A stretch of 64,000 nucleotides of DNA from Methylococcaceae bacterium UBA2780. Its GTDB lineage: Bacteria > Pseudomonadota > Gammaproteobacteria > Methylococcales > UBA2780. Shown piece by piece: positions 34,229 through 63,015 of this stretch; the first letter of the stretch is position 1; every line of letters begins with the position of its first letter. Where the stretch lies: positions 46,801 to 110,800 of the forward strand of contig DEIG01000011.1 of assembly GCA_002352345.1 (NCBI GenBank), written 5' to 3'. A program made the translations under genes and the position numbers. Below the pieces are notes generated by a model. That model had not been told where the DNA came from, did no database searches, and saw nothing but the letters and a program-made list of their open reading frames with translations.

Positions 34229-36730
34229 CTAGCCCTTCATACCATCCATAAGCGACTGAGCCTCTGCCTTTTGCTCATCACTTCCTTGCGCCATGATTTC
34301 TTGAAGAATCTCCTTTGCTGCATCCTCATCTTCCATATCCACATAGGCTTTAGCGAGATCCAGCTTTGTCTCAACTTCATCCATATCGGTCAAACTTGCA
34401 GCAATGTCGTCTCCCAAATCAAGATCAGGACTCTCTTCTTCAACCTTAGATTCAGACTTCTCCTCTTCTTCAGGAGAGATCATTTCAAAATCAAAACTAA
34501 AGCCATCATTTTCTTCTTCGGCCTGCTCACTGCTCTCTTCAGCTTTTAATTCCTCAGCCTCTTCCTTAACCTCTGACTCTGAAAGATCAAAATCCACCTC
34601 TGAGGCTTCCTCTCCACCCATCTCAGCACTAAAGTCGATTAGGTTATCGTCATGTTCATCAGTAGAACCGGATGCCGCCTCTCCATCAGCCAGATTAACG
34701 TCAACGTCACCGGCCTCTAATTCAGGTAGCTCAAGAGATTCTTCTGTAATAGAAGCATCAACAGCTAATTCATCATTAACCTCTTCTACCTCTTCAAGAG
34801 GGAATGGATCATTACCTTCTTCGGAGGAAAGCTCATCAGAGAGCGTTTCATCTTCGGCAAACAAAGTATCCTGCGTCTCTTCCTGCTCACTCTGAAAGAG
34901 AGCCTCTTCTGGGCACATGTCTTGGCCCATCTCTACCGCCCTCAACCACAAATCAGAGTCAGAGCCTGCAACGTCAGCATGAATCTCTTTTGCTAACGAG
35001 AGGAAAGCATTTTTATCTTCAGTGGCAAAATGTATTTCGAGCAACTTAAGTTTGTACTCTTCATTTGCAGGATCATTCTCAATGGCCTGGCGCACCAAAT
35101 CTTCTGCCTGCTGATAGCGGCCGTACGCAAGGTAAACATCCGCCTCGGTGATTGGATCGACTTCATCATTATCACTTTCGAGCGTATCAAAATCGCTAGG
35201 TGTAAACTCGCTCAAAAAAGAGCTTTCAGCAGGAATACCGGCTTCACTCTCGCTGCTATCGACAACGGGGGCAATCAATTCATCACTTGGGGCCTGCTGA
35301 TCATCCGTTGCAACCAAAATACTTTCTGCAGCGGTAAAATCTTCCTCAAGAGCCTGCTTGCGGCGTCTTGCAATAGCAACAATCGCAAGAACAAGTATAC
35401 CAACCCCTCCCAACCCAAGATAAACAGGGTCCTCATAAAATGGTGTTTCTTGAGCAGGTGGAGGGCTTTCGGCATCTGTTTTTTCTACTTCGGGTTCAGA
35501 TTTAGGAACCTCCGCAACAATATCCGCACTTGGCTCACTGTTTTCAACCACCTCAGTTACTGCCTTATCAGCAATCACCGCTTCACTTTCTTGGTTATCT
35601 TGCAACGCTGCAAGTTGCTCGTCTTTTAATACAAGCAACCTCTGCATTGTCGATACCTGCTCTTCAAGAGCAGCCATTCGCTTCTGGATATCTTCATTTT
35701 CCTGGCGTACAGTCTCGGAAATCTCAATGGCTTTGTCAGCCACAGATGCGGCACTATTACCGCCCGCACCCGAATCTTGATCGGCAAGCCCAGAGGCACT
35801 CAGCGCCTCCTCATCTGTTGGCGACATCAGCGTTAGTTGGCCCGCATCCTGCTCCTTATCCGAAGGCAGCAACAGCTCTTCCGTTATCTTCTTTTGTTTA
35901 GAAGATTCAACATCTGAAACCAAAGCAGGAACTTTTGCAGTCCAGATTTTGTAGTGATCAGAAAACTCCCTCCTCGCTTCATGCCTAGTTAACCGCCGAG
36001 CCTCTTCGCTCGTTGGAACGGCTAATGTTTGCCCTCTTTTTAAAGCGTTAACATTCTTCTTGTAAAAGGCCTCTGGGTTTTTCTTGTACAGCGCCATCAT
36101 CATCTGCTCTTGAGAGACAGATGAGTCACCATTAACCTCTGTAGCAACAGCCCAAAGCGTGTCATTTTTTTTAGTCGGGCCGTATTCTGCCCCAGCCGAA
36201 TTACTGCCTGAGCGCCCTGAGTACGACGAAGAGTAACTACTCTCTACACTACGTTTTATCGAAGATGGTTTTTCAGCCGAGCGGCGAACTGCTGGTGCTT
36301 TTTGTATGGCAGTTTCTGTTTCTCTTAATGTGACAGGGGGATCTAGAAGAACTGTAAACTCCTTCAGTGCCCGCCCTTGAGGCCAGTTCACCTCAACTAG
36401 AAAGTTTAAAAATGGTTCTCGAATAATATCATGCGAGGTCACCTTAACAGAAAGGGATCCATCTGCCATGACAACAGGCTTAAAGCGAATATTTGAAAGA
36501 TAAAAGTAACGTTCAACTCCCGCACGCTTAAAAGCTTCTGGTGAGGCCAAAGTGACCTTAATGTCAGAAGATGATTCAGAGCGTGAGGCAACCAATGCTA
36601 TTTTTGCATTTAGTGGCTGATTCAAAGCCGAATGCAGTTCAATATCACCAACCCCTAAGGCAGCAACTCCCATTGGCGCCAAAAAGGTTGCTGCTGCCAA
36701 TGTTTTAGGTAGTCTCTTCACTTTATTCAT
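34229..36730 (-). CDS. fimV: FimV/HubP-family polar organising protein
   Basis: Features: signal sequence, conserved N-terminal LNQPLNAKIAL block, LysM-like segment (YGPTKKNDTLWAVA), single TM (YLGLGGVGILVLAIVAIA), very acidic cytoplasmic half, TPR-like repeats, and a FimV C-terminal motif (LDLAKAYVDMEDEDAAKEILQEIM). It is adjacent to an asd-family gene, as in Pseudomonas. I place the start at ATG 36730, directly preceded by GGAGGA, not at 36763. Confidence 0.85.
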   Translation of the reverse strand: MNKVKRLPKTLAAATFLAPMGVAALGVGDIELHSALNQPLNAKIALVASRSESSSDIKVTLASPEAFKRAGVERYFYLSNIRFKPVVMADGSLSVKVTSHDIIREPFLNFLVEVNWPQGRALKEFTVLLDPPVTLRETETAIQKAPAVRRSAEKPSSIKRSVESSYSSSYSGRSGSNSAGAEYGPTKKNDTLWAVATEVNGDSSVSQEQMMMALYKKNPEAFYKKNVNALKRGQTLAVPTSEEARRLTRHEARREFSDHYKIWTAKVPALVSDVESSKQKKITEELLLPSDKEQDAGQLTLMSPTDEEALSASGLADQDSGAGGNSAASVADKAIEISETVRQENEDIQKRMAALEEQVSTMQRLLVLKDEQLAALQDNQESEAVIADKAVTEVVENSEPSADIVAEVPKSEPEVEKTDAESPPPAQETPFYEDPVYLGLGGVGILVLAIVAIARRRKQALEEDFTAAESILVATDDQQAPSDELIAPVVDSSESEAGIPAESSFLSEFTPSDFDTLESDNDEVDPITEADVYLAYGRYQQAEDLVRQAIENDPANEEYKLKLLEIHFATEDKNAFLSLAKEIHADVAGSDSDLWLRAVEMGQDMCPEEALFQSEQEETQDTLFAEDETLSDELSSEEGNDPFPLEEVEEVNDELAVDASITEESLELPELEAGDVDVNLADGEAASGSTDEHDDNLIDFSAEMGGEEASEVDFDLSESEVKEEAEELKAEESSEQAEEENDGFSFDFEMISPEEEEKSESKVEEESPDLDLGDDIAASLTDMDEVETKLDLAKAYVDMEDEDAAKEILQEIMAQGSDEQKAEAQSLMDGMKG

Positions 36731-36809
36731 TCCTCCAGAAATCGAAGCTTTCCTTCGTCCCACAAATTAAAATCCAGCCCATCAGGGCAAATAGTCTCTT
36801 CAGACTAGT

Positions 36810-40187: not shown

Positions 40188-40323
40188 CTGCCATCCCCAC
40201 CAATTCTCTGGATTACGACAATAGTAGACCTGCAAAACAATTAAAAGTGCGCCTTTTATCACACAAAGAAAATTTAATGGCTGGCACCTTCACCAATCTA
40301 GTCAATCTTAGTAAAACTCATTG

Positions 40324-46896: not shown

Positions 46897-47814
46897 ATGA
46901 AAGATGCCCTTTTCGTACTGATTCAGTATTTAATTCCACACCACCTACTTTCAAGGCTGATGTGGAAGGCGACGCGCTCGCGTAACAAGCTTTGGAAAAC
47001 ATGGCTAACCAACTTTATTATCAAACGCTTCAGCATCAATGTTGCTGAAGCTGAAAATAATGATCTAACTAGCTATGCAACCTTTAATGAGTTTTTTACC
47101 CGTAAGCTACGCGCTGATGCACGTCCTCTTGCCAAAGCTGAAGACGCCATCCTCTCCCCTGCTGATGGCGTTGTCAGTCAAGCGGCCGAAATTACGCATG
47201 GGCGCCTTATTCAGGCCAAAGGCAAAGACTACGGACTCACCGAACTGCTCGGTGGAGACAGTGCGCTTGCAAACCAATTCCAAGGTGGGGAGTTCACAAC
47301 CATTTACCTCTCCCCTCGCGATTACCACCGTTTGCATATGCCTCTTGCTGGCAAGCTAACAAAAATGATTCATGTGCCCGGGCGGCTGTTTAGCGTTAAC
47401 CCAACCACCGTTGCCGCAGTACCGGGACTTTTTGCCCGTAATGAACGTGTTGTTGCACTGTTTGATACAGAAGCGGGCCCAATGGCGCTAATTCTGGTTG
47501 GTGCAATCTTTGTCTCAAGTATTGAGACTGTTTGGCATGGCGAGGTGACACCACCCTCCTCAACACATGTTCGCCACTGGGATTATCAAGATGCAAAACA
47601 GCCTGTTGAGTTGAAAAAAGGCGAGGAAATGGGGCGCTTTAATATGGGCTCGACCATTATCGTGCTTTTTGGGGCAGACAAGATAAATTGGGGCGATCAC
47701 TTTCACGCTGAGTCAACTGTTCAAGTAGGTGAAGAGATCGGTAAAGTCCAATCTAGTGGCGAAAAAGAGGTGCAGGTTGAAGCACTGGTTGATAGTCTGT
47801 TATCGGATAAATAG
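46897..47814 (+). CDS. psd: Phosphatidylserine decarboxylase proenzyme
   Basis: 305 aa with the self-cleavage motif FNMGST and conserved YHRLHMP. Confidence 0.92.
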   Translation: MKDALFVLIQYLIPHHLLSRLMWKATRSRNKLWKTWLTNFIIKRFSINVAEAENNDLTSYATFNEFFTRKLRADARPLAKAEDAILSPADGVVSQAAEITHGRLIQAKGKDYGLTELLGGDSALANQFQGGEFTTIYLSPRDYHRLHMPLAGKLTKMIHVPGRLFSVNPTTVAAVPGLFARNERVVALFDTEAGPMALILVGAIFVSSIETVWHGEVTPPSSTHVRHWDYQDAKQPVELKKGEEMGRFNMGSTIIVLFGADKINWGDHFHAESTVQVGEEIGKVQSSGEKEVQVEALVDSLLSDK

Positions 47815-47815
47815 G

Positions 47816-48799
47816 CTAGGCTCGATCGACTGAGAAACTCATTACTTTGTCGATCGACTCTTCTCCCTGAATCAACATCAATAGCCGATCAAGGCCAATA
47901 GCGATACCTGAACAGTTCGGCAACCCACTTTCCAGTGCAGCAAGTAGCCGTTGATCAATCGGTAGCTGAGGCAACCCCTTCAGCGCCCGCTCTTGCGCTT
48001 CAGCTGTAAATCTCTGCTTCTGCTCATCAGCATCGGAAAGTTCGAAGAAACCATTTCCCAGCTCAACTCCATTGATAAACAGCTCTACTCTTTCAGCTGT
48101 TCTAGGGTCCGCTTTATTTAATCTTGAGAGTGAAGCCTGGCAAGCGGGAAAGCCGACAATAAAGCAGAGCCCCTCCTTGCCGAGTGATGGCTGCACAAGG
48201 TGGCTAAACAAAAAGTCTAGCCAAAGCGAATAATCCTCACCACAAACTGTCACCGCCTCTGAATAACCATTTTTGTCGGCACAATTTATAAAGTCATCGA
48301 TGCTCGCTGTGAGCGGATCAACCCCCGTTGCTTGCTGAAAAGCTTCTGAGTAGTTTTGCTGAATGGTGGGTTGTTTTAATACTGCAGGAGCGAGCTGTGC
48401 AATCAACTTTTCAACTTCATCAACAAGCTGCTGCAGATCAAAATCGACCCGATACCACTCTAAAATAGAAAACTCAGGATTATGAAAACGCCCTGCCTCA
48501 CCATTTCTGAATGCTTTACAGATTTGGAAAATTGAGCCACTTCCAGCAGCAAGCAGCCGTTTCATCGAAAACTCAGGGGAACTATTTAGGTAAAGGGCTA
48601 AACAATCAGTCGACAGAGGATGATCAAAAGAGGTTTTAAAAGGGGTAATATGCGGATCTGTTCCCGCTGCATTTGAAAGCAGCGGTGTTTCAACCTCCAA
48701 CACATTGCGCGCATCAAAGAACTGGCGTATTCCTTTAAGCATTACTGCACGCATTTTTAATGCAGCAATATCACACCCTGGTTGCCAGTCTACCTTCAT
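47816..48799 (-). CDS. epmA: EF-P--(R)-beta-lysine ligase
   Basis: 327 aa with a class II LysRS-like catalytic core and no anticodon-binding domain. Immediately downstream of efp. Confidence 0.9.
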   Translation of the reverse strand: MKVDWQPGCDIAALKMRAVMLKGIRQFFDARNVLEVETPLLSNAAGTDPHITPFKTSFDHPLSTDCLALYLNSSPEFSMKRLLAAGSGSIFQICKAFRNGEAGRFHNPEFSILEWYRVDFDLQQLVDEVEKLIAQLAPAVLKQPTIQQNYSEAFQQATGVDPLTASIDDFINCADKNGYSEAVTVCGEDYSLWLDFLFSHLVQPSLGKEGLCFIVGFPACQASLSRLNKADPRTAERVELFINGVELGNGFFELSDADEQKQRFTAEAQERALKGLPQLPIDQRLLAALESGLPNCSGIAIGLDRLLMLIQGEESIDKVMSFSVDRA

Positions 48800-48818
48800 A
48801 CAGTTAAAGCCGGCAGGA

Positions 48819-49388
48819 CTAGCTTTTTACACGCCCTGTGTACTCACCCGTACGCGTATCAATTCGCACCACTTCACCAATCTGAACAAACAGAGGCACA
48901 CGAACAACCGCACCAGTCTCCATTGTTGCTGGTTTCCCGCCCCCACCAGATGTATCACCTTTAAGGCCTGGGTCAGTATCAGTAATTGCCAACTCAACAA
49001 AATTGGGGGGCGTCACCAATAAAGGCTCACCATTCCAGAGCGTCACAATGCAGTTATCTTGCTCTTTTAGCCATTTCGCATTATCACCTAATGCCGCTTC
49101 AGCACAGGAGTATTGCTCAAATGTTTCTGGCTCCATAAAGTGCCAGAACTCTCCATCACAATAGAGATACTGCATTTCCAGCTCAATCACGTCAGCCCCT
49201 TCAACCGACTCACCTGATTTAAAGGTTCGCTCAATTACCCGGCCACTTCGCAGATTTCTGATTTTCACTCGGCTAAATGCCTGCCCTTTTCCTGGCTTAA
49301 CAAACTCATTTTCAATAATGCTGCAGGGATCATTATCCAGCATTATTTTAAGTCCGCCTTTGAACTGGTTAGTGCTATAGCTCGCCAT
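48819..49388 (-). CDS. efp: Elongation factor P
   Basis: 189 aa with VKPGKGQAF carrying the modifiable lysine. Confidence 0.97.
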
Positions 49389-49464
49389 CTTTTCCTCTTA
49401 ATTTATCCAATTAGCAATCTGGCCATTATAATGGAGTGTCAATTCGAGAGAAACTATATCCTTT

Positions 49465-50472
49465 ATGTATTCCAGTGCTGCCCCAGCGATTCAACAGACA
49501 ACTTGGCAACAAGCGCTTGCTCGTAGCTGCACACAACTTCCAGAGCTACTTAATTACCTTGAGTTAAAGCCAAGTGCCGTGCCAATCAGTGCTGATGCAA
49601 TGGCAAAGTTTCCACTACGAGTCACTTATGACTACCTATCCCGTATCGAAAAAGGCAACCCAAACGACCCTCTTTTGCGCCAAATACTGCCTATAGAAGA
49701 CGAGTTAGCTTTTAACAGCGACTACACAGCTAACCCCGTTGGAGATATTGAAGCTGAGCAAGTTGCAGGAATTTTACATAAATATCATGGCCGCCTGTTG
49801 CTTATCACTACGGGCGGTTGCTCCATTAACTGCCGTTACTGCTTTAGGCGCGAGTACCCATATAGCGGCAATCAGACAAGCAAAAGTGTCGAGCAAGAGG
49901 CGATGGATTACATCGCGCAGCAATCAGAGATTAGCGAGGTTATTTTGAGTGGTGGTGATCCACTCATTCTAAATGATGCACGGCTCTCTTCACTTGTCTC
50001 ACAACTTGAAGAAATTCCTCATTTAAAACGGCTACGCATCCATACTCGGCTTCCTGTAACGCTTCCCTCCAGAGTTGATCCGCTTCTCTTAACATGGCTT
50101 TCCAAAACAAGATTAGCTACCTCCCTTGTTTTGCATGTCAACCACCCCAATGAGCTAGATAACGCTGTAGGCGATGCTTTATTAAAATTGCGACAAGCTG
50201 GTGTTACGCTTTTAAACCAGAGCGTCCTCCTGAAAAACATTAATGACAGCGAATCTACCTTATGCCAATTGAGCGAAGCTCTTTTTCAATATGGCGTCCT
50301 ACCCTACTATCTCCATCTTCTCGACAAGGTTTCTGGCAGCCAGCATTTTGATATCCCAGATGCAGATGCTTGCCAGCTATATCACCAAATTCGTAGTAAA
50401 TTGCCGGGTTACCTCACCCCAACACTTGTACGTGAGCGTAGCGGTTTTCCATATAAATCACCCATTTTATGA
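49465..50472 (+). CDS. epmB: EF-P beta-lysylation protein (lysine 2,3-aminomutase family)
   Basis: 335 aa with the radical-SAM motif CSINCRYCFRR. Divergent from efp. Confidence 0.9.
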   Translation: MYSSAAPAIQQTTWQQALARSCTQLPELLNYLELKPSAVPISADAMAKFPLRVTYDYLSRIEKGNPNDPLLRQILPIEDELAFNSDYTANPVGDIEAEQVAGILHKYHGRLLLITTGGCSINCRYCFRREYPYSGNQTSKSVEQEAMDYIAQQSEISEVILSGGDPLILNDARLSSLVSQLEEIPHLKRLRIHTRLPVTLPSRVDPLLLTWLSKTRLATSLVLHVNHPNELDNAVGDALLKLRQAGVTLLNQSVLLKNINDSESTLCQLSEALFQYGVLPYYLHLLDKVSGSQHFDIPDADACQLYHQIRSKLPGYLTPTLVRERSGFPYKSPIL

Positions 50473-50568
50473 ACTAGCTCTCAACCTTCAGAGCTATTTT
50501 CCTGAAAATCCCAGTTATTAGCCTATCCTTAAACGTAACTATTCAATTTAATTGAGGATGCAGAGCAG

Positions 50569-52272
50569 ATGTATGAACCGACTTTAGGTGCTGAACCTAG
50601 CGCTGAGTTGCCTTTTAAGCTGACGACATCGGCCATTTCTGAGTGGATTGACCAGCTACCTGTCTTAAACACGGTACACTCAGCAGAAAAGATCTACCGA
50701 GTGTTACAGTCTCTTTCTGACCTAGAAATAGAGCCAGCACTTCGGTTTCAACTCCTTGAATGTTTGAATGGGACAGCCTGCCTGCTATCCAACACTCTAG
50801 AAAAACATTTTCTGGATGCCTCCTTTCCTCTTCCTAAAAAAGAGCAAAAGCTAGCTAAGCTTTCAACACATTTGCACAGAGAGCTTACTTCCAACTACGC
50901 CATAATTACAAAAAGTGAGCCGTTTCTTGGTTCAGGTAACTTTGCTCCCTCTCAGATCAGAGCTACTGTTGGGCATGCCCTGTATTCTTTGTCTCAAGAG
51001 CAGCTTCTAATCGCTCAGCGCTATGAAGCCTGTTCAACTCGGTTTTGGACACAATTTTACGAGCTTCTTGCCTTAGTAGAACAATTAGATATTCGGCCCC
51101 TAGATAACTCAAAAGAGAACTCTATCGACCTACTAATAAAGAGGATTCTCCTTTTCTCTATATCAAACCCAAACCGCTTTTCACAGCGTGAAATCAAAGA
51201 GCTCTACTCACTCTTTAAGTTGCATGCAGAATTGGCACAGCTAGATAATCATCCCTCCAACAACCAATCTAAAAAAGCCGGATTCTTTATCGAGCTGGGG
51301 TATTTTCAGCCACCTCGGCACATAAGCCGAATAACGCCAGATTCTTCTGTCTCAACGCTAAGGTACATCCATACTAATGACTTAGTTGAGTATCTTATTG
51401 ACCAATTCAAAGCTCTGCTCAATACAGATAATGGCAACTGTCTGTTCTCCAGCAAACGAATGCTAGGGAAAGTTGTAAGAAGTCTAGGCGCTCCTGAACG
51501 GCGAAAAAACCCAAGACTCCAAAGTGAATCGCCAGCATGCACGGTTATCCCAGGCCTTGAAAACATCATCTCTTTTCTCTCAAATCCTGACAGCGCAGGA
51601 AAAACGAAAGAGGCTATTAAACCTGTACGCGCCAGTGAGCTTTGGAATGATATCCCTGACTTTGACATCATTCCATTAGACACAAACAACCTCCAGACTA
51701 ATGCATTTAGTAATAATGAGCACGGTGAAAGTATTGCACACTCAGCGCTTACAAAGTCAAAGAGCATGATTGCAAGCACTGACATTTGGGGCAAAAAACC
51801 ACTATCACGCCCTGAACTAAAAATAAAAAATCTTGACTGCAAGATATTAGATATCAGCACTAAAGGCTTCCACCTGCTCTGGATAAAAGAGGCGAATGCA
51901 AACATAAAAGTTAGCGAAATAATTTCTATATCACAAGCTGGACAGCCCATGAAAACAGGGGTTGTCCGCTGGATTGAAAATGACAGGCGGTCAGGACTCT
52001 CATTCGGAATAGAGCTACTCTCACCAGTCACTCAAATTGTAACCGCAAGCTCTCCCAAACAGCCTGACTCTGAAATAAAAGGCCTGTTAATACCAGAACT
52101 ACCCGAGAAAAACATCCAGCAAAGCATTCTAGTTTCCCCTTCAAAATACAAAACGGGTGGTTGGGTTGACCTTAAAGGGAAAACAGTCTCTAAACGCTAC
52201 CGACTACAAAAGCTGCTCGAGACCTCACCATCATTTAACCAATTTTCCCTATTTAAACTGGACAATAGCTAG
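50569..52272 (+). CDS. Hypothetical protein with C-terminal PilZ-like domain
   Basis: 567 aa. The N-terminal ~400 aa are helical and I recognise no family. The C-terminal ~110 aa have the PilZ DxSxxG motif (DISTKG, nt 51850-51867) and beta-barrel-like periodicity. The upstream RxxxR element is non-canonical (SRPELK). Confidence 0.6.
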   Translation: MYEPTLGAEPSAELPFKLTTSAISEWIDQLPVLNTVHSAEKIYRVLQSLSDLEIEPALRFQLLECLNGTACLLSNTLEKHFLDASFPLPKKEQKLAKLSTHLHRELTSNYAIITKSEPFLGSGNFAPSQIRATVGHALYSLSQEQLLIAQRYEACSTRFWTQFYELLALVEQLDIRPLDNSKENSIDLLIKRILLFSISNPNRFSQREIKELYSLFKLHAELAQLDNHPSNNQSKKAGFFIELGYFQPPRHISRITPDSSVSTLRYIHTNDLVEYLIDQFKALLNTDNGNCLFSSKRMLGKVVRSLGAPERRKNPRLQSESPACTVIPGLENIISFLSNPDSAGKTKEAIKPVRASELWNDIPDFDIIPLDTNNLQTNAFSNNEHGESIAHSALTKSKSMIASTDIWGKKPLSRPELKIKNLDCKILDISTKGFHLLWIKEANANIKVSEIISISQAGQPMKTGVVRWIENDRRSGLSFGIELLSPVTQIVTASSPKQPDSEIKGLLIPELPEKNIQQSILVSPSKYKTGGWVDLKGKTVSKRYRLQKLLETSPSFNQFSLFKLDNS

Positions 52273-52315
52273 AGAGTTACAGAGAATGAGGTGAACAAAA
52301 GGAAAATGTCTACCC

Positions 52316-54382
52316 ATGATCGCCACCAAAAAAAGGCTAATTCTTGCTATCGATGTTAAGCGGGAACAGATTGAAAACTTGGCAATGCTATGCGTAGAAG
52401 GCGATGCGAATATCACCTTTCATGCCATCTCTTCAAGTGATTACCTAAGCAATAAAGAACACCCAGAGCCTAGCCTGATTTTATTGAACATGACTCAGAC
52501 CTGCCAAGAGTCGTCAAGGGCTATTGAGGCAATCTCAGAATCACCTCACCCCATCATACTAATACACCCAACAGACTCTTGCTGCACAACATGGTGGATG
52601 CCAACATATCCTCAATTACGAGACTGCCTACCGGACAGGGATAACGAAAGAATTTCAACCGCTATTCTTCGGGAAATTGAAACGCTAGAGCTAGAACACC
52701 GTTTAAAAGAGAGCCAGTTCAAACTCAATAACATCAGCCAAGGGCTTAACTCTATTATCTCTAATGGCCATGAAGCTGCAGCCTTAATTCATAATGGCCG
52801 ATACCTAAAAGCAAACAAAGCCTATCGAAAACTTTTCTCTCTCAATAATGATCAAAGCCTCAAAATATCAGCCATACCCCAAGTTTTTATCGACATTGAG
52901 AAACCTCATTCAGCATTGGGCCCGCAGAGCAATCAAAGGCTTGAGAACTGCTCTATAACACTACAAACAGGAGAAGTTTTCCAGGCTGAAATCCTCGCGT
53001 TTCCTCTCACCATTAAAAATAAGCAGTGCCTTCAAATATTAGTTAGGAACCCATCTATAGGTAAACTTAACACTGAAGCGGCCCAACAACTCTTACACAG
53101 AGATGAGCTCACAGGCCTTATTAATAGGCAGTATTTTCTAGAGCAACTGAAAGAGCGGACAGAAAATAGAGCCTACAAAATCGACGGGGGGCTGGCTCTA
53201 ATCCTTATTGACCGCTTCAAAGCGATACGAGAGGAAAGAGGTATTCTCTATAGCGACCAACTATTAACCAAAGTTTCTCGATTGATTGAGGACAACTGCC
53301 ACCCAGATGATCTTGTTTCTCGGTTTAATGATGCTGTTTTCGCCGTTTATACCTCACGCTTAAAAGCCGAGGCATTCTCTAGCCTAATCGAACATATTCA
53401 ACAAAACACTGCTGAAACTTTGTTTGAATCGGGAGAAGATTATCTGCAAATAACCTGTAGCGTTGGAGCAAGCCTCTGGAGCGACCAGCTCTCCGATATG
53501 CAAGAGCTCATAACACGCGCAGACCAAGCATGCGCCAAAGCAGCAAAAAATGGCGGCAACCAGATTCAACTCTATAGTAGCCTGTCAACACCAATTGGTT
53601 CCGCGCTGCACGAGCAACAACAATCTGCCGAAATTTCGGCCGCTCTCAAGGAAAATCGATTCCGCCTAATTTACCAGCCAATTGTTCATCTCAATGGAGG
53701 AGAGGTAGAAAGCTATGCGGTACTTCTCCGCATGATTGATAGCGAGGGCAAACACATTTCACCCGACCAATTTATTCATCTTGCTGAAAAAACCGGGATG
53801 ATTTACAACATCGATAAATGGGTTATCCAACAAACCTGCCTGCTTATCAAGCGCGCACAAATACGCAAAAACAATCGCCTGTTCTTCGTCAAGCTATCAG
53901 GTGAGTCACTCAACAATAAGAACCTTCTACCTCACCTATACAACTGCCTTCAGGAAACAGGTACCAACGGAAAGTCGCTTGTATTCCAAATAGACTATGC
54001 CGAGTCCAGAATACGACCAGCTATTCTTAAAAACTTCATTCTTGGTATAAAAAAAGTAAACTGCCAATTTGCATTTGATCATTTTGGGTTTGGAAAATTC
54101 AGATCAATGGACTTGCAGGAACCCCCTATTGACTATATAAAAATCGATGGCGCTTTTATCCGTAATTTACTGGACAACCCAGAATATAGGGCAACAATTA
54201 AGCGTGTAATCTCCGCGTCACGCCCATTGAATATAAAAACAATTGCTAAATCAGTCGAGGATGCCAACACGCTAGCCTCTCTTTGGAATCTTGGTGTCGA
54301 TGCCGTGCAAGGCTACTTTCTCCAGGAACCTTCTGGAAACATGAAGTATGATTTTTCTTATAATGAGGATGAGAGCGCCTAA
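52316..54382 (+). CDS. FimX-like REC-PAS-GGDEF-EAL protein with degenerate GGDEF and EAL motifs
   Basis: 688 aa. The GGDEF position reads RFNDAVF (nt 53321-53341), compared with FimX RFGDSIF as I remember it. The EAL position reads ESYAVLLRM (YAVLLR at nt 53714-53731), compared with FimX ENYEVLLRL. The N-terminus looks receiver-like and lacks an obvious phospho-Asp context. Confidence 0.75.
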   Translation: MIATKKRLILAIDVKREQIENLAMLCVEGDANITFHAISSSDYLSNKEHPEPSLILLNMTQTCQESSRAIEAISESPHPIILIHPTDSCCTTWWMPTYPQLRDCLPDRDNERISTAILREIETLELEHRLKESQFKLNNISQGLNSIISNGHEAAALIHNGRYLKANKAYRKLFSLNNDQSLKISAIPQVFIDIEKPHSALGPQSNQRLENCSITLQTGEVFQAEILAFPLTIKNKQCLQILVRNPSIGKLNTEAAQQLLHRDELTGLINRQYFLEQLKERTENRAYKIDGGLALILIDRFKAIREERGILYSDQLLTKVSRLIEDNCHPDDLVSRFNDAVFAVYTSRLKAEAFSSLIEHIQQNTAETLFESGEDYLQITCSVGASLWSDQLSDMQELITRADQACAKAAKNGGNQIQLYSSLSTPIGSALHEQQQSAEISAALKENRFRLIYQPIVHLNGGEVESYAVLLRMIDSEGKHISPDQFIHLAEKTGMIYNIDKWVIQQTCLLIKRAQIRKNNRLFFVKLSGESLNNKNLLPHLYNCLQETGTNGKSLVFQIDYAESRIRPAILKNFILGIKKVNCQFAFDHFGFGKFRSMDLQEPPIDYIKIDGAFIRNLLDNPEYRATIKRVISASRPLNIKTIAKSVEDANTLASLWNLGVDAVQGYFLQEPSGNMKYDFSYNEDESA

Positions 54383-54388
54383 GAGAAA

Positions 54389-55282
54389 CTACTCGTTCGA
54401 AATCCCATGTGGTACATGCCCTGTTGGGACATGCTCGCTTGCAGATTCACAATGCGATCGCTGATCATCGAAAAAGATATCAGCTCCAAAGGCTTTCAGA
54501 AAAGCCCCTTTATCCATTCCCCCTAAGAACAGCGCATCATCAATCCTGATTTCCCAAGCTCTAAGCGTCCTTACTACCCGCTCATGCGCTGGGGCTGAAC
54601 GTGCTGTTACCAGCGCGGTTCGAATAGGCGACTGATCTGCATCATAATGCTTCTGAATCTGCTGTAAAGCGGCTAAAAATGATTTGAACGGTCCTCCCGT
54701 TAAAGGTCTTTTCGCCTCAGTTTTCTCATTTTGGGTAAAGGCATCTAGCCCATGCTGTTTATAAACCCGCTCAGATTCATCTGAAAAAAGCACCGCATCA
54801 CCATCAAAGGCAATCCTTAACTGCCCTGAACCGGAGGCCGTTTTCCCTGATGCGTAAATGGTTGCCGCCGCAAAACCTGCCTCTAATGTTTTTTCAACAT
54901 CATCTGCATTGGCCGATAAGAAAAGATCTGCTCCAAATGCGCGAATATAAGAAAAAGGGCTTTCACCGCTCGTAAAAGCAGCTCGGGTGATATCCAAATT
55001 ATGATGCTGAACTGAGTTGAATATTCGCAACCCAGTATCAGCACTATTTTGCGAAATCAGTATCACCTCAACCGCCGGTTGCTCTTTCGAAAAATCCTTA
55101 TTAATCGAAAGCAGCTTACAAACCAAGCCATAAGCGACTCCTGGCCGTAAAGCTTCGTCTTCATGATCGACTTGATAGCGGCAATAGGCCTCTGTCCCTT
55201 CACGCTTAAAAACATCATGGGATTCATCCAAATCAAACAGTGCTCTTGAAGAGATCGCAACAACGAGTTTTTTATCCATCAT
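54389..55282 (-). CDS. 5'-nucleotidase (cN-IA-like, PF06189-type)
   Basis: 297 aa. The N-terminus LVVAISSRALFDLDESHDVF and overall pattern match the bacterial 5'-nucleotidase family as remembered. Confidence 0.6.
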   Translation of the reverse strand: MMDKKLVVAISSRALFDLDESHDVFKREGTEAYCRYQVDHEDEALRPGVAYGLVCKLLSINKDFSKEQPAVEVILISQNSADTGLRIFNSVQHHNLDITRAAFTSGESPFSYIRAFGADLFLSANADDVEKTLEAGFAAATIYASGKTASGSGQLRIAFDGDAVLFSDESERVYKQHGLDAFTQNEKTEAKRPLTGGPFKSFLAALQQIQKHYDADQSPIRTALVTARSAPAHERVVRTLRAWEIRIDDALFLGGMDKGAFLKAFGADIFFDDQRSHCESASEHVPTGHVPHGISNE

Positions 55283-55348
55283 TCCCTAAAGCTGATAAAA
55301 TCAGAACCGAGTCATAAAATAGTACCCACCATCTGGAAGATACAACCC

Positions 55349-56785
55349 ATGCGGAAAAAATCAATCAATAAATACCTCGATAATCTTGAAAAGCATCTTT
55401 CAGAAGAAAACCCTGTTCTTCTTGATGCAACAAAAGGATTTAGAACGATTGATGAAATTGCCTCCGAAGTTGGGCTTCTGAAAGAGGGTGAATCAACTGC
55501 AAGCCAAATTCCTTGGTGGCCACTTATTTCCATTCTTGGCACCTTTTCCGCAGGAAAATCGACTTTCATCAACCACTATCTCGGCGCAAAAAGCCAGCGT
55601 ACAGGAAACCAAGCCGTTGATGATAAGTTTTCCGTTTTGTCTTTCAGTAAGACGGATGAGATGCGGACGCTACCCGGCATTGCCCTTGATGCAGACCCAC
55701 GCTTTCCTTTCTACCAAATCAGCACAGAAATTGATGAGGTAGCCGATGGAGAGGGACAGCGAATTAATGCCTACTTACAACTTAGAACCTGTCCCAGCGA
55801 CCGTCTTCGTGGAAAGATCCTAATCGACTCTCCGGGGTTCGATGCGGACTCACAAAGAACTTCAACACTCCGCATTACTCGGCATATCATTAATATTTCA
55901 GATCTTGTTCTAGTACTATTCGATGCCCGCCACCCAGAGCCTGGCGCAATGCAAGATACGCTACACCATCTTGTTGAAGAGACTATCCAGCGACCCGATT
56001 CAGAAAAATTTCTCTATATTCTCAACCAGATAGATACTACTGCGCGCGAAGATAATCCAGAGGATGTCGTAGCAGCTTGGCAGCGGGCTTTAGCTGAAAA
56101 AGGTCTGACCGCTGGCCGTTTTTATACCATTTATTCTCCAGATGCAGCGGTTCCAATTGAGGATGAAAACCGGCGCGCACGATTTGAAAGTAAACGTGAT
56201 CATGATCTTGCAGAAATTCATGACCGAATGCATCAGGTTGAAATAGAGCGTGCTTATCGAATTCTCAACGCCCTTGAAAAGACCACGCAAGAGCTTGAGA
56301 ACAGCGCTATACCTCTTATTAAAGAGCACCTTGCTGAGTGGAAAAAAAAGGTGCGTGTTGTCGATATATTCCTGCTCGCACTCCTAACCACATTAACAGT
56401 AGGACTCGGTATCAGCAGTGGTTTTTTACAGGGCAGCATTGAATCTTTAATTCAGGGAAATCCCATTCTTTCTGGAGCGGGAGCGGGACTATTCATTATC
56501 CTTTTTCTAAGCGGACACTTTTCAGCCAGGAAATATTACGCGAACAAAATTGCGCAAAAATTATCAGAGCAATCTGAAAACCTTATTTTCCTCGACCATC
56601 TTGATAAAGCCTTTTTGAAAAACACAACACCTGGCAGGATTTTCACCGGCAGTAGAGTTGTTGGTTGGAACAAAAGGGCAATGAGACGGGTGGAAGAGCT
56701 CCTTGAAGATAGCAAAGAGCTCGTTCAAAAGTTGAATGACACCTTCACTGATCCTTCAGGAAAAGTTGTTACACGTGAAAAATAG
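55349..56785 (+). CDS. Dynamin-family GTPase with C-terminal membrane hairpin
   Basis: 478 aa with G1 GTFSAGKST, G3 DSPGFD and G4-like LNQID. Two hydrophobic helices lie near residues 345-400 (VVDIFLLALLTTLTVGLGI, GAGAGLFIILFLSGHF). Confidence 0.7.
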   Translation: MRKKSINKYLDNLEKHLSEENPVLLDATKGFRTIDEIASEVGLLKEGESTASQIPWWPLISILGTFSAGKSTFINHYLGAKSQRTGNQAVDDKFSVLSFSKTDEMRTLPGIALDADPRFPFYQISTEIDEVADGEGQRINAYLQLRTCPSDRLRGKILIDSPGFDADSQRTSTLRITRHIINISDLVLVLFDARHPEPGAMQDTLHHLVEETIQRPDSEKFLYILNQIDTTAREDNPEDVVAAWQRALAEKGLTAGRFYTIYSPDAAVPIEDENRRARFESKRDHDLAEIHDRMHQVEIERAYRILNALEKTTQELENSAIPLIKEHLAEWKKKVRVVDIFLLALLTTLTVGLGISSGFLQGSIESLIQGNPILSGAGAGLFIILFLSGHFSARKYYANKIAQKLSEQSENLIFLDHLDKAFLKNTTPGRIFTGSRVVGWNKRAMRRVEELLEDSKELVQKLNDTFTDPSGKVVTREK

Positions 56786-56801
56786 ACAGCAGTAACCTAG
56801 T

Positions 56802-58028
56802 TCACTGAGTGATCGTCTCATCAGCGATTACTAAAATAGTTGCCGTTTGATTGTAGTGCCCTAAAGAGCCACCGAGCGTCGTACCCTGCTCACCAAAGGT
56901 ATTAAACCCGATCATCGGCACCTCTTCTCCCACAACCTCTCTAACAATTTCTTGATCATCGATATCGAGCCTGCACTTAAGCAGATGCCTCAATATGCAG
57001 TTAAAGATAATAATCGCACCAATCTTCTTTGGATTACCTGCATCTTTAATTGCATTACGAAGTGTCTCCTTAAAACTCTCGACTGCAAACTCACGATCAG
57101 ACTCCATATGCGTTAGATAGGCACCTTCGGGTACCTCTGCGTAAAAAGTGAGGCTACTGTCGTCATTGGCCGTCATCACACTTTTAATTGTATATTGACC
57201 AAAAACATCCGATGACTTAATTCCCATTGGGTTTTCGGCAAATAGATCCGCATTCAGTTCATCAACACCTAACAGGGCTTTCATCGCCTCTTCGGCCTTC
57301 TGGTTATTAAGCTCGTAAACCGTTCGCCCCTCGGCCTTCGTCACTAAGAGCCCTTCATTTGATGGATAGTATGGGTGGCCCATCGCTGTCCCCATTTTCA
57401 AAGCACTGCTTAAAACAGCCATCACACCTGAATCCTCGTAAACACCGTTACAAAACTGATGCGTGACTGTATTACTTAAATCATTTGCCGTTGACCCGCC
57501 CACAACCTGACTGACTTTACCCACCTCTTTCAATAATGTTCTGAGAAAAGCCTCTTCTCCACCACTTGTTCCACTAGGGAGAACAATGTTCACGAAAGGT
57601 TTGATATGCGCCGCCTCTGATGCGCTTTTACCGCCCATCGCAATCGTCAACATCGACATCACAATCGGATTTGCCTGAACTGCGGCGTAAGCATCTTTGA
57701 CCGCTTTTTGTGCAGCTGCATCAGGATCAACCGACAACCCTTCACCCGCACCAATGCCTACACTTAAATAAGAGCTCTGAAGTGTCATCACCGCGACACT
57801 ACTATCAACGGGTGAGTCAGCAATACTGGAAAACTCACCAATTGCTGTGCCGCCAATGACTGCTGCATCACCTACAGCATTCTTCACCACATCATAAACG
57901 TCATGAGGATTATGTGTGGAGGCGCAAAAGACAATCACCAATATTGGCTTAGGGGTTGATTGCATGGCGGATTGAATCGCCTCTTCAGGGCAGGCAGAAT
58001 GGCCCAAACCCACTTTGAGTACACTCAT
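56802..58028 (-). CDS. FIST (N+C) domain sensor protein, stand-alone
   Basis: 408 aa. The layout and motifs (..VIVFCAS.., ..GGTAIGEF.., ..GFNTFGEQG..) match FIST_N plus FIST_C. A GGAGGA RBS is present. Confidence 0.7.
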   Translation of the reverse strand: MSVLKVGLGHSACPEEAIQSAMQSTPKPILVIVFCASTHNPHDVYDVVKNAVGDAAVIGGTAIGEFSSIADSPVDSSVAVMTLQSSYLSVGIGAGEGLSVDPDAAAQKAVKDAYAAVQANPIVMSMLTIAMGGKSASEAAHIKPFVNIVLPSGTSGGEEAFLRTLLKEVGKVSQVVGGSTANDLSNTVTHQFCNGVYEDSGVMAVLSSALKMGTAMGHPYYPSNEGLLVTKAEGRTVYELNNQKAEEAMKALLGVDELNADLFAENPMGIKSSDVFGQYTIKSVMTANDDSSLTFYAEVPEGAYLTHMESDREFAVESFKETLRNAIKDAGNPKKIGAIIIFNCILRHLLKCRLDIDDQEIVREVVGEEVPMIGFNTFGEQGTTLGGSLGHYNQTATILVIADETITQ

Positions 58029-59877: not shown

Positions 59878-60528
59878 TTACAACTCAACTGAACTACTTG
59901 CATAGCGCCGACTCAACATCCAAATAAGCTCGACAAATTCCGGCCGGTTCAAGCAGGGAATACCTTCCATCACCAAGACAAAACGCTGTTTACCTATGTA
60001 CAGAGGCCAGAAGCCAATCTTGCTATGGCCGGCTGCATCGACAATCGACCAGGCACTACTTGCCAAACCAAGATTATTAACCAGTAACCCCGACCGCCGT
60101 GCGTGTAAGCTAGCCAGCTCCGCACTTAAGGCCGATAACTCTTCTGCCACCTCATGCGGAAAGCCACTCGATGCTAGATAAAAGCCCTGCTCATCACCCA
60201 AAAGCGCCTTACCACTATTTGATAGTCGACCAAGTAGCTCTGGCAATACCTCTTCAAGCGGGCTATCCAAAACTGCTCGCTCTGAATCTAACCCTTCAAC
60301 CCATGCCAAAGACTGTAGATGTTTTAACAGTTCAAGCGTCTCATCTTCGCTCTCCAAACCTGATAGCGCTGCGAGTGTTTCCGCGGTTAACGCAGGGGTT
60401 TTCTCTTGGCCCAACAAATTACGCAATAATGCTTTAGTCGAATTCCCCTCAGCTGCCGAAACTGCGCTGTAAGCACCTCCTGGCGTTGGGTGAAGAAACA
60501 ATCCTTCGGTTAAAACTAATTCAGTCAT
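59878..60528 (-). CDS. Hypothetical protein, C-terminal half possibly a divergent Roadblock-like fold
   Basis: I place the start at ATG 60528 (MTELVL), 1 nt after the upstream stop, with GGAGGA inside the upstream gene's 3' end. The ORF-track start at 60618 would overlap the GTPase gene by 89 nt. The C-terminal ~110 aa show strand-helix-strand-strand-helix periodicity resembling Roadblock. This is inference only. Confidence 0.6.
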   Translation of the reverse strand: MTELVLTEGLFLHPTPGGAYSAVSAAEGNSTKALLRNLLGQEKTPALTAETLAALSGLESEDETLELLKHLQSLAWVEGLDSERAVLDSPLEEVLPELLGRLSNSGKALLGDEQGFYLASSGFPHEVAEELSALSAELASLHARRSGLLVNNLGLASSAWSIVDAAGHSKIGFWPLYIGKQRFVLVMEGIPCLNRPEFVELIWMLSRRYASSSVEL

Positions 60529-60529
60529 T

Positions 60530-61069
60530 TCATTCCTCCACCAATCCCGGATCAAGGGTATAAAGTAATGCTTGCACAAGTAGCGAGACGTCTTCTGACT
60601 CCCGCGCATCAACCTCAAACAAAGGTGGATTCAGCCCCATTCCCTTCAAGTGAAGGTGATAATCAGTGATTGTTGGGCGAGGATTTTTATCCATCTGTGT
60701 CACTCCAACAACGACAGCTGTCTTATCGATAAACTCAGAAAAAGAGTCCATAAAAAAGCGTAAATCAACAAAAGGGTCTGTACGAGTATTGTCTAGCAGT
60801 ACAACCAGACCAATCCCACCTGTTGTCAATATATCCCACATAAAATCAAACCGCTCCTGCCCAGGTGTTCCATACAGATGAATTGCTTCACCACCCTCAA
60901 GACGCATCACTCCGTAGTCCATCGCAACCGTTGTCGCTTTCTTACGTTCACGCGTCATATCACTCGCAGATTCATCTGTTGTGATCGGTGCATCATCGCT
61001 AATTGAGCTGATCGCTGTTGTCTTTCCTGCACCAACAGGACCTGTAAAAATAATCTTGTAATTACTCAT
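60530..61069 (-). CDS. Small Ras-like GTPase, MglA/CvnD (COG2229)-like
   Basis: 179 aa with G1 GPVGAGKT, G3 GTPGQERF (the Asp of DxxGQ is replaced, as in MglA-type and conservon GTPases) and G4 TQMD. Confidence 0.8.
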   Translation of the reverse strand: MSNYKIIFTGPVGAGKTTAISSISDDAPITTDESASDMTRERKKATTVAMDYGVMRLEGGEAIHLYGTPGQERFDFMWDILTTGGIGLVVLLDNTRTDPFVDLRFFMDSFSEFIDKTAVVVGVTQMDKNPRPTITDYHLHLKGMGLNPPLFEVDARESEDVSLLVQALLYTLDPGLVEE

Positions 61070-61078
61070 CTCGTCTAT

Positions 61079-62272
61079 TTATCCAATTTTTAAACGATCT
61101 AGGATTTTGCCAAACAGGCCGCGCTTTTTTGGTTTTTGAACAGGCTCAGGCGCAACAATCACATCAGCTTGCCGTTTAACCTGTCCAGCTACCCCAAGTG
61201 CTCTTGCTGCGCTATAAAAAGAGAACACATATTGCTGAGGCACATTAAGCACCCTAGCAATCTCCATTAGAGACCTAGGATGTTCCATCATCAACGCTGC
61301 AATCCTCATCGCATGAGGAAACAGCATCAAACGCGTCATATTTGGCCAGTGACGCAGATAAACAGGGCGCTCCAGATCTACCCCCAGCGGCACTCGCCCT
61401 TGAGAGGTCCAGAGCGATACTTTCCACAGAAAAGAGTCGATATTTTGAAAACCATCTTTATCGCTGATATCAAGACCATCTACATCATTTACAACCGAAA
61501 TCGTCATTCCTGAACCTTTTCCATCCAACGCAGGGTCCGCACCATTCAGAACCTTCAGTGGCACCCTGCATGCAGCCTGCAGCTGTTTATCATTGGCATC
61601 GAGCCAAACTTCGTTTGTTCTCGGAAAAATCAGTAAAGGTTTCCAGCTGCCATCCAATTGAAGTATCTGGTTTTTGTTCAAGGCAACCTTGCAAGCTGAC
61701 TGAAAATAACCCTGCAGATAGCTTTTCGGGTCGTAATGCGCGTCGTTAACTTGCCTCTCATCACTCATATCAACAGGCTGCAGTGCACCAATAAATGAGA
61801 TAAAACTTTTCTCATCCAATTGCATTGCTGAACGATGAGTAGAAGGAGGCTTACTTTGGCGCTTAACACTCTTTGTTACAGCCGGTTGCGCCACCTGCTC
61901 AGAAACTGGTTCTACAAAAGCCTGCTTTTCTGCTTTCAGCTCTTCTCGACAGCCTGCTTTAACCTTATCCAACACATTCATCAGTGCTTTAGGTTGAAGC
62001 GGCTTTTTAACAAAAAAACTATCCTCATCATCTCTATCTTTCAATGACAAAAGAATAAATTGGTGCTCAGGAAATTTTTCACGCTGCTGTCTATAAAGAG
62101 AGTCTGAGTCAACCGCATCCATATCAACAATGCTGACGGTTGCCGTCCCATCCCCGACAATTTCACAGCTATTTTTACAAGGCCCCTGAAAGAACAGCTG
62201 AAGCATATGTTGCGTTCGACTATCCATGCCAACCGTTGTAACGAGGAGAGAGGGCTGAGCTTTCTTGCTCAT
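61079..62272 (-). CDS. Receiver-like N-terminal domain protein with unrecognised C-terminal domain
   Basis: 397 aa. Residues ~8-110 have a receiver-like layout (LLVTTVGMDSRT ... VSIVDMD ... FVKKPLQPKAL). A Pro/Lys/Ser-rich linker follows, then a ~230-aa domain I cannot assign. Confidence 0.6.
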   Translation of the reverse strand: MSKKAQPSLLVTTVGMDSRTQHMLQLFFQGPCKNSCEIVGDGTATVSIVDMDAVDSDSLYRQQREKFPEHQFILLSLKDRDDEDSFFVKKPLQPKALMNVLDKVKAGCREELKAEKQAFVEPVSEQVAQPAVTKSVKRQSKPPSTHRSAMQLDEKSFISFIGALQPVDMSDERQVNDAHYDPKSYLQGYFQSACKVALNKNQILQLDGSWKPLLIFPRTNEVWLDANDKQLQAACRVPLKVLNGADPALDGKGSGMTISVVNDVDGLDISDKDGFQNIDSFLWKVSLWTSQGRVPLGVDLERPVYLRHWPNMTRLMLFPHAMRIAALMMEHPRSLMEIARVLNVPQQYVFSFYSAARALGVAGQVKRQADVIVAPEPVQKPKKRGLFGKILDRLKIG

Positions 62273-63015
62273 TTATCTAACTCCTCTGATAATTTCTGTT
62301 GTAGTTCATTCCATTGGCCTAAAAATGAAGCGGCCTCATCGCCCAGTTTCCCTCTCATTCTCTTTAATGATGCTAAATCTCGTGTTGATTTGTAAATAGC
62401 AAGAAGGTCGTTATGAAGTGCCTCCCTTGAAGGGCTATCAAGCAGCCCCTTTTCAAGAATCTGTTGAGCTTGCTCTATCTGGCTATACTCAAGACATTCA
62501 TGAGCCTCTTCTAACGGGTCGCGATCAATAGAGTTTTCTCCATTCCTGCCTTCAACAGTTTTAACCAAGTCCAAACAACCATTCACGCCTTTGCCTAAAA
62601 CAGAGCCCGGTAAATCCGGAAGCCTGTTCTTACTCAACTCCTTTGCTGTATAGAGTGAAGCCAATTGCTCAAATTGAATTGACTGAAGGCCGCCCCTTGC
62701 ACCCAACAACAACCGCTTGAAAAGTGCTCGACCCGAACCATCTAATGCAATCCATAAATCCAGTAGGGCTGCAAAAAGCAAGCCGTGATCTCCTTGGTCG
62801 TATTGAAACCAAATACGCTGAATGTGATTTTTAATATTTGAAGGATTGCGTGAAACTTCAGAACAAAGAAAATCTGACACCTTATTCTTGCGATCATCCG
62901 CCACCGCCAATCTCAATCCTGACGCATCTGCTATCTGAAAAATAGCGTCATGAATTACCCCTGATGAGGTTCCGTTATCTGATTGATCCGGATCGAAAAA
63001 CAAAGAGTTATTCAT
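62269..63015 (-). CDS. Hypothetical helical protein (first gene of the GTPase operon)
   Basis: 248 aa. I recognise no family. The C-terminal ~80 aa look like TPR-type helical repeats (LEEAHECLEYSQIEQAQQILEKGLL). Its stop overlaps the next start (ATGA at 62269-62272). Confidence 0.55.
   Translation of the reverse strand: MNNSLFFDPDQSDNGTSSGVIHDAIFQIADASGLRLAVADDRKNKVSDFLCSEVSRNPSNIKNHIQRIWFQYDQGDHGLLFAALLDLWIALDGSGRALFKRLLLGARGGLQSIQFEQLASLYTAKELSKNRLPDLPGSVLGKGVNGCLDLVKTVEGRNGENSIDRDPLEEAHECLEYSQIEQAQQILEKGLLDSPSREALHNDLLAIYKSTRDLASLKRMRGKLGDEAASFLGQWNELQQKLSEELDK

Follow-up and report, generated by a model that had tools for sequence, protein, structure and literature searches.

A pair of bis-(3′-5′)-cyclic dimeric guanosine monophosphate (c-di-GMP) receptors that are encoded together is already known from Pseudomonas aeruginosa. 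FimW, a PilZ-type protein that binds c-di-GMP and regulates pilus extension, is encoded with FimX and gathers at the cell poles on surface contact (PMC11656802), and FimX binds PilB directly, without a PilZ protein, and only when able to bind c-di-GMP (PMC5595344). Some groups have claimed a weak phosphodiesterase activity for P. aeruginosa FimX (PaFimX), ascribed to Glu475, the catalytic residue that coordinates Mg; in the structure of the protein with c-di-GMP (3HV8), no metal is present (PMC3527489). Xanthomonas likewise has a degenerate GGDEF-EAL receptor for type IV pili and involves a PilZ-fold protein, in PilZ-FimX-PilB complexes (PDB 4f3h, 4fok; PMC11656802). The FimX of Acinetobacter baylyi has lost residues L477, R479, E654, Y673, F652 and H533 (PaFimX numbering) and does not bind c-di-GMP (PMC12139848). 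Here we describe two adjacent genes of Methylococcaceae bacterium UBA2780, an uncultured marine gammaproteobacterium; they lie in a stretch of 64,000 nucleotides (nt; contig DEIG01000011.1 of assembly GCA_002352345.1, positions 46,801 to 110,800, forward strand) that we call the window. We read the pair as a fimW-fimX operon, orthologous to PA4958-PA4959 of P. aeruginosa, whose two products would be c-di-GMP receptors that have no enzymatic activity and control type IV pili, and we hold this reading with good confidence. Orthology, motifs, fold and synteny point to proteins that would bind c-di-GMP, localise to the pole and act on PilB.

Both open reading frames (ORFs) lie on the plus strand, and the coordinates, lengths and spacing given in a first-pass annotation of the letters alone proved exact:

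50569..52272, plus strand: fimW homologue, 567 amino acids (aa), hereafter protein 1; assigned from the ORF, from FimW_N and FimW_C on an identical protein, and by BLASTP

52273..52315, plus strand: intergenic gap of 43 nt, with an AAGGAA ribosome-binding site ahead of the fimX ATG, seen in the sequence

52316..54382, plus strand: fimX homologue, 688 aa, hereafter protein 2; assigned by BLASTP to PaFimX and by its best match in the PDB, 4j40

A database protein identical to protein 1 (loci L002/L003) carries precomputed Pfam matches, taken at E<=1e-5, to PF27104 (FimW_N) and PF27125 (FimW_C). Protein 1 also aligns by BLASTP with P. aeruginosa FimW (PaFimW, PA4958) at 22% identity (aa 19-559 against 26-570, E 1e-23). 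PaFimW is represented here by a 607-aa protein from metagenome locus L011, which was found via the FimX EAL sequence of PDB 4afy; the FimX EAL domain encoded at this locus shows 100% identity to the 4afy sequence. Protein 1 had no match in our local Pfam or NCBIfam, and the PilZ model (PF07238) gave none even at E<=1; the local Pfam is older than the FimW_N and FimW_C models, which explains why no FimW match appeared there. Searched by sequence against the PDB, neither protein 1 nor a FimW family profile gave a match, even at E<=10. The family is large, with 1904 representatives at E<=1e-3 in an exhaustive HMMER search, most of them full-length at 23-31% identity. A word-indexed search returned a handful of close homologues of protein 1, also with PF27104 and PF27125, and a genome scan with protein 1 as the single query yielded one relative, a Guaymas gammaproteobacterial metagenome-assembled genome (66% identity for FimW). 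Since both FimW domains occur on an identical protein that is collinear with PaFimW, we conclude that protein 1 is, by homology, a member of the FimW family and not an orphan PilZ-like protein.

Two FimW-like genes also stand in tandem (533 and 607 aa) at L001:4096-7824 (GCA_003934915.1), with no FimX gene nearby. The 607-aa copy (P0005) has VSRDDR in the RxxxR columns of a 153-sequence alignment, which could be an alignment shift.

Structure prediction and family alignment divide protein 1 into the following parts, as modelled with AlphaFold2 (AF2) and scored by the predicted local distance difference test (pLDDT):

50569..51468, plus strand: FimW_N region (about aa 1-300), helical and repeat-like, then a short alpha/beta part; AF2, pLDDT mostly >90

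51496..51516, plus strand: ERRKNPR, carrying the RxxxR motif (R312, R316); family alignment

51601..51804, plus strand: variable, low-confidence spacer between the PilZ motifs (about aa 345-412); pLDDT below 50-60

51826..52269, plus strand: C-terminal all-beta region (aa ~420-567), a PilZ-type barrel and a second beta domain; AF2, Foldseek

51850..51867, plus strand: DISTKG, the [D/N]xSxxG motif (D428, S430, G433), aa 428-433; family alignment

The full-length AF2 model (pLDDT 84.6, predicted template modelling score 0.82) places helices at aa 20-222, in keeping with the earlier description of a long helical N-terminal region, which covers the first ~220 residues; Foldseek returns weak, generic helical-repeat matches for FimW_N. 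The RxxxR motif is followed in the model by a strand (aa 323-328), the low-confidence loop (aa 345-412) and all-beta structure from aa 422. When the C-terminal 268 aa were modelled alone (pLDDT 83), every one of the top 13 Foldseek matches in the PDB was a PilZ protein with two barrels, and most of these structures contain c-di-GMP; the proteins are VCA0042 (2rde, the best, E 5.9e-4), MrkH, YcgR and MotI. Single PilZ domains were matched as well, namely BcsA (root-mean-square deviation 3.2 over 75 columns) and Alg44, and the full-length model gave a marginal match to YcgR (E 7e-3). As the Pfam PilZ model gives no match, the PilZ likeness of protein 1 rests on motifs and fold together. We conclude that the C-terminal part of protein 1 has, as modelled, a PilZ-type fold, as the first-pass annotation had proposed. 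The two-barrel receptors (YcgR, VCA0042/PlzD, MrkH, MotI) are the best structural match of the FimW C-terminus and share with it the RxxxR and DxSxxG motifs, but they have no detectable sequence similarity to FimW; the FimW spacing is about 110 aa, and FimW_N is unrelated to them.

In canonical PilZ domains, RxxxR lies about 20-30 aa before DxSxxG. The first-pass annotation had correctly reported DISTKG in protein 1 and had taken SRPELK (aa 413-418) as a broken RxxxR, but this segment lies just after the spacer, and in an alignment of 60 family sequences the columns there, upstream of DxSxxG, are not conserved. The conserved RxxxR is found instead at R312 (kept in 52/60 sequences) and R316 (53/60). 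The second motif is retained to a similar extent (D or N, 52/60; S, 46/60; G, 55/60). A spacer of 111 aa separates the two motifs in protein 1, and one of 87-125 aa does so in the family (median 111); PaFimW is laid out alike, with R324xxxR328 (ERTFQR), N435xS437xxG440 (NHSPGG) and a spacer of 106 aa. Among 153 FimW representatives, 122 have both motifs, 15 have neither, 14 have RxxxR alone and 2 have DxSxxG alone, a co-occurrence with Fisher p = 4e-11, uncorrected for phylogeny. Such joint retention and loss is as expected for two halves of one binding site. We conclude from these alignments that the PilZ motif pair of protein 1 is split, not broken; the 111-residue distance would reflect a variable loop, probably inserted between the first two barrel strands.

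About 10% of the representatives (15/153, for example P0142, P0144, P0150, P0156, P0167, P0178 and P0181) lack both motifs, which suggests a FimW subfamily that no longer binds c-di-GMP.

PaFimW and protein 1 thus have in common their length class (607 and 567 aa), collinearity, a helical N-terminus, a PilZ-type C-terminus, split motifs 106-111 aa apart, a fimX gene directly 3′ and psd upstream. They differ in that identity is only 22%, that epmA-efp-epmB stands between psd and fimW in the window, and that protein 1 has D where PaFimW has N. FimW, with its helical N-terminal domain and, at the C-terminus, a beta-barrel region of the PilZ type, would bind c-di-GMP through R312xxxR316 and D428xS430xxG433. 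As in P. aeruginosa, binding would send it to the poles when the cell meets a surface and would promote pilus assembly.

The first-pass annotation had instead suggested a possible receptor/adaptor module, with Xanthomonas as the analogy; in a module of that style protein 1 would be a non-binding PilZ adaptor that bridges FimX to PilB. Such a role would fit the PilZ-type fold of protein 1 and its apparent co-transcription with a fimX homologue, and PilZ-FimX-PilB complexes do exist in Xanthomonas. However, FimX of Xanthomonas is paired with a small PilZ protein without binding motifs, whereas protein 1 is a 567-aa FimW family member, not a small single-domain PilZ, and keeps both c-di-GMP motifs in the split arrangement typical of its family. 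Moreover, P. aeruginosa FimX binds PilB without a PilZ protein (PMC5595344), and a review finds no evidence for a functional interaction of FimW with FimX or with PilB (PMC11656802), so that the proposed receptor/adaptor interaction between the two proteins is not supported. We rejected a Xanthomonas-type adaptor because protein 1 belongs to the wrong family and has both motifs, and we consider this explanation improbable.

The downstream gene product matches PaFimX (PA4959, 691 aa) in a single BLASTP alignment that pairs aa 2-685 of protein 2 with aa 1-691 at 26% identity (E 1e-72). FimX is also the best match among solved structures (4j40, 1.2e-60), before LapD, DosP and two further GGDEF-EAL proteins of P. 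aeruginosa, PA0861 (1e-46) and MorA (9e-30), and the EAL domain matches that of P. aeruginosa FimX at about 1e-43 as against about 1e-22 for Xanthomonas FimX. The regions of protein 2 are:

52316..53065, plus strand: N-terminal region, REC-like (about aa 1-118) and PAS-like (about aa 130-250); collinear with PaFimX

53096..53563, plus strand: degenerate GGDEF domain, aa 261-416; Pfam GGDEF, 1.5e-28

53321..53341, plus strand: GGDEF signature RFNDAVF, aa 336-342; alignment

53630..54331, plus strand: degenerate EAL domain, aa 439-672; Pfam EAL, 2.6e-52

53714..53731, plus strand: YAVLLR, aa 467-472; aligned to YEVLLR of FimX

Because a single alignment runs from residue 2, the N-terminus of protein 2 lines up collinearly with that of FimX, which carries degenerate REC and PAS domains. 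Pfam finds neither a REC nor a PAS domain there; in profile comparison, the PAS-like part alone gives E 3.9e-4 and the REC-like part alone is not significant (E 0.12). The FimX architecture of the first-pass annotation is clear for the GGDEF and EAL domains; a REC-PAS order ahead of them may hold. Protein 2 and PaFimX both lack the phospho-acceptor Asp of the REC-like region, the position being N58 in the former and Ala in the latter. We conclude that protein 2 is, as judged by alignment along its length, a full-length FimX orthologue.

Gene order around the pair is conserved. The window reads psd, epmA, efp, epmB, fimW, fimX, with the upstream genes placed as follows:

46897..47814, plus strand: psd (phosphatidylserine decarboxylase), a synteny marker; Pfam PS_Dcarbxylase, 9.5e-64

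47816..50472, mixed strands: epmA (minus), efp (minus) and epmB (plus), between psd and fimW; ORFs, Pfam labels

The P. aeruginosa locus L011 encodes rhdA, psd, the 607-aa FimW and the 691-aa FimX, an order that we take to be that of PA4956-PA4959. The order psd-fimW-fimX recurs in an unrelated lineage (L005), and epmA-efp-epmB-fimW-fimX recurs in L009/L010. In Endozoicomonas sp. OPT23 (L008:1335-7010), efp-epmB is followed by an inverted extra fimW and, after it, by fimW-fimX. Among the Pseudomonas-type metagenome loci that extend far enough upstream, 56/56 have a fimW homologue directly ahead of fimX on the same strand. Being close relatives of one another, these loci are not independent; the same arrangement holds in the three unrelated lineages L005, L008 and L009. 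P0016, a REC-PAS protein that JGI names FimX, is probably of the Xanthomonas type, and no FimW gene lies next to it.

At the Endozoicomonas locus, Pfam finds an EAL domain and no GGDEF domain in the FimX homologue, and the two FimW genes are divergent.

Protein 2 lacks the signatures of both enzymatic activities. Its RFNDAVF aligns with RFGDSIF of PaFimX and with RYGGEEF of active cyclases, so that the signature (NDAVF, compared with GDSIF in PaFimX) is without the GG[D/E]EF motif of the cyclase active site. In the EAL domain, YAVLLR aligns with YEVLLR, and the Glu-to-Ala change is no alignment artefact; the first-pass annotation had read both substitutions in this way and had named misalignment as a possible cause, and the check for protein 2 came out negative. 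The EAL catalytic set is for the most part lost, with A468 for the Glu, S528 for the Asn, Q/Y for ExxE, DHFGFG for DDFGTG and KSVE for EGVE, and only R472, K609, E648 and Q665 remain of the catalytic and metal-binding residues. PaFimX has SQFGCS where protein 2, with the first Asp kept, has DHFGFG. These losses make catalysis by protein 2 very unlikely, and the earlier claim that neither protein of the pair is enzymatic agrees with them.

If protein 2 were an active enzyme, bifunctional or a phosphodiesterase, whose GGDEF and EAL domains only look degenerate, this would account for the strong Pfam matches to both domains, and some groups have reported the weak PaFimX activity mentioned above. 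However, such an enzyme would have to work with an NDAVF signature and with Ala for the EAL Glu, Ser for Asn, DHFGFG for DDFGTG and KSVE for EGVE, and the Glu missing from protein 2 is the sole residue to which the PaFimX activity was ascribed (PMC3527489). With the catalytic motifs absent, we rejected this explanation, to which we give almost no credence.

The loss of the EAL Glu is not confined to the window. All seven cluster representatives of the protein 2 clade, down to 37% identity, have AVL or AIL in place of EVL, which indicates that A468 is not a sequencing accident; the Glu is kept at this position in 80/80 Pseudomonas-type FimX proteins. This clade-wide loss is the only feature of the pair that is mildly novel.

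Some AIL-clade FimX homologues (P0012, P0013 and L009:5001-6761) are ~100 aa shorter than protein 2 (586-589 aa), with the PAS-like segment missing in the alignment. They nonetheless follow epmA-efp-epmB-fimW.

The residues around the c-di-GMP site fare differently from the catalytic set. Positions of PaFimX and their equivalents in protein 2 are:

Q461 of PaFimX, Q454 in protein 2: kept

E475 of PaFimX, A468 in protein 2: changed

L477 of PaFimX, L470 in protein 2: kept

R479 of PaFimX, R472 in protein 2: kept

D507 of PaFimX, D500 in protein 2: kept

H533 of PaFimX, K526 in protein 2: changed

K616 of PaFimX, K609 in protein 2: kept

F652 of PaFimX, S646 in protein 2: changed

E654 of PaFimX, E648 in protein 2: kept

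Q671 of PaFimX, Q665 in protein 2: kept

Y673 of PaFimX, Y667 in protein 2: kept

PaFimX contacts c-di-GMP through Tyr673, Glu654, Asp507, Arg479 and Leu477 (PMC3527489), and all five contacts are kept in protein 2. Together with K616, they are shared with the structurally characterised PaFimX (PDB 4j40, 3hv8, 4afy), and R472, D500, K609, E648 and Q665 of protein 2 are invariant across 14 FimX-like proteins. Since the cyclase signature is absent, most phosphodiesterase residues are gone and most c-di-GMP residues are kept, protein 2 appears to be a pure c-di-GMP receptor, in which a degenerate GGDEF-EAL protein with putative REC and PAS domains would hold c-di-GMP in a catalytically dead EAL site. 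We judge c-di-GMP binding by protein 2 to be likely from the residues retained. By analogy with P. aeruginosa, FimX would then act at the pole on the pilus extension ATPase PilB.

Several points weigh against reading the pair as two c-di-GMP receptors orthologous to those of P. aeruginosa. Both proteins have low identity to their characterised counterparts (22% for FimW and 26% for FimX), the REC-like part of protein 2 is not significant by itself, and for FimW the Pfam PilZ model is silent and the best Foldseek E-value is only 5.9e-4. In protein 2, the equivalent of E475 is Ala, and two base-contacting residues of PMC12139848 are altered, F652 to Ser and H533 to Lys. In addition, a PaFimX mutant in which EVL was changed to AAA did not bind c-di-GMP, although this mutant also removes the contact L477 (PMC5595344).

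The three changes in protein 2 and the PaFimX mutant would fit an alternative in which FimX of this clade has lost c-di-GMP binding, as is documented for A. baylyi FimX (PMC12139848), and serves as a scaffold that works without the ligand, so that FimW would be the only sensor of the pair. Protein 2 and A. baylyi FimX are both FimX orthologues with a further diverged EAL motif, and the EVL Glu is Ala across the clade of protein 2. However, L477, R479, E654 and Y673, the phosphate and base contacts that A. baylyi FimX has lost, are all kept in protein 2 and are invariant, or nearly so, in FimX-like proteins. In the receptor LapD, moreover, c-di-GMP is bound although the position of Glu475 is not occupied by Glu. 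Glu475 itself serves metal binding and catalysis, stands outside the listed contacts and belongs to a protein whose c-di-GMP complex is metal-free (PMC3527489). We therefore regard a loss of binding as rather unlikely, and prefer the reading in which both FimW and FimX are receptors.

Further landmarks lie around the pair:

34229..36763, minus strand: fimV, encoding a polar type IV pilus landmark protein; Pfam FimV_N, 1.4e-39, and TPR

50475..50496, plus strand: terminator-like hairpin 3′ of epmB; consensus scan

As the first-pass annotation had indicated with its figure of about 14 kb, fimV is 13.8 kb from fimW-fimX, in the same chromosome region and outside the operon; pilB does not occur in the 64-kb window. 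The consensus scan found no plus-strand terminator-like hairpin in the fimW-fimX gap. The hairpin 3′ of epmB weakly suggests that fimW-fimX is a transcription unit separate from epmB, the total number of sites that the scan found in the window being no higher than in shuffled sequence.

Directly 3′ of fimX (54389-58028), a PF06189 5′-nucleotidase gene is convergent with it, the two ORFs ending 6 nt apart, and is followed by genes for a dynamin-family GTPase (55349-56785) and a FIST-domain sensor protein (56802-58028). A 241-aa antisense ORF (51306-52031, minus strand) lies wholly within fimW and is presumably a by-product of the fimW reading frame. Elsewhere in the window, a 498-aa protein (38766-40262, minus strand) joins an aminoacyl-tRNA editing domain (YbaK-like, tRNA_edit) to an HDOD domain, a pairing that is to our knowledge unusual. 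Three ORFs without a Pfam match (246, 397 and 248 aa; 59878-63015, minus strand) flank a small ATP_bind_1 protein (GPN-loop GTPase-like, 60530-61069). Apart from these genes, the window holds housekeeping DNA of an ordinary chromosome.

For the genome at hand, the analysis corrects the annotation, of protein 1 to FimW and of protein 2 to FimX, and otherwise matters little. For the family, the fimW-fimX pairing reaches well beyond Pseudomonas, into marine gammaproteobacteria, beside epmA-efp-epmB or psd, and the FimW site appears as a split PilZ site whose motifs, with about 110 residues between them, are kept or lost jointly. A FimX clade that replaces the only catalytic Glu retained by PaFimX bears on the old dispute about the relevance of a phosphodiesterase activity in FimX. 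We put forward one further reading only tentatively, as an outside possibility. In this clade the metal-binding Glu of FimX is gone for good (AVL/AIL), next to a FimW whose split PilZ site is intact, and this would have consequences either way. If FimX of the clade still binds c-di-GMP, it would be a natural proof that FimX function needs neither residual phosphodiesterase chemistry nor a metal. If it does not, FimW would be the sole c-di-GMP input and FimX a scaffold that needs no ligand, a stage of rewiring that would stand midway from the state found in P. aeruginosa to that in A. baylyi.

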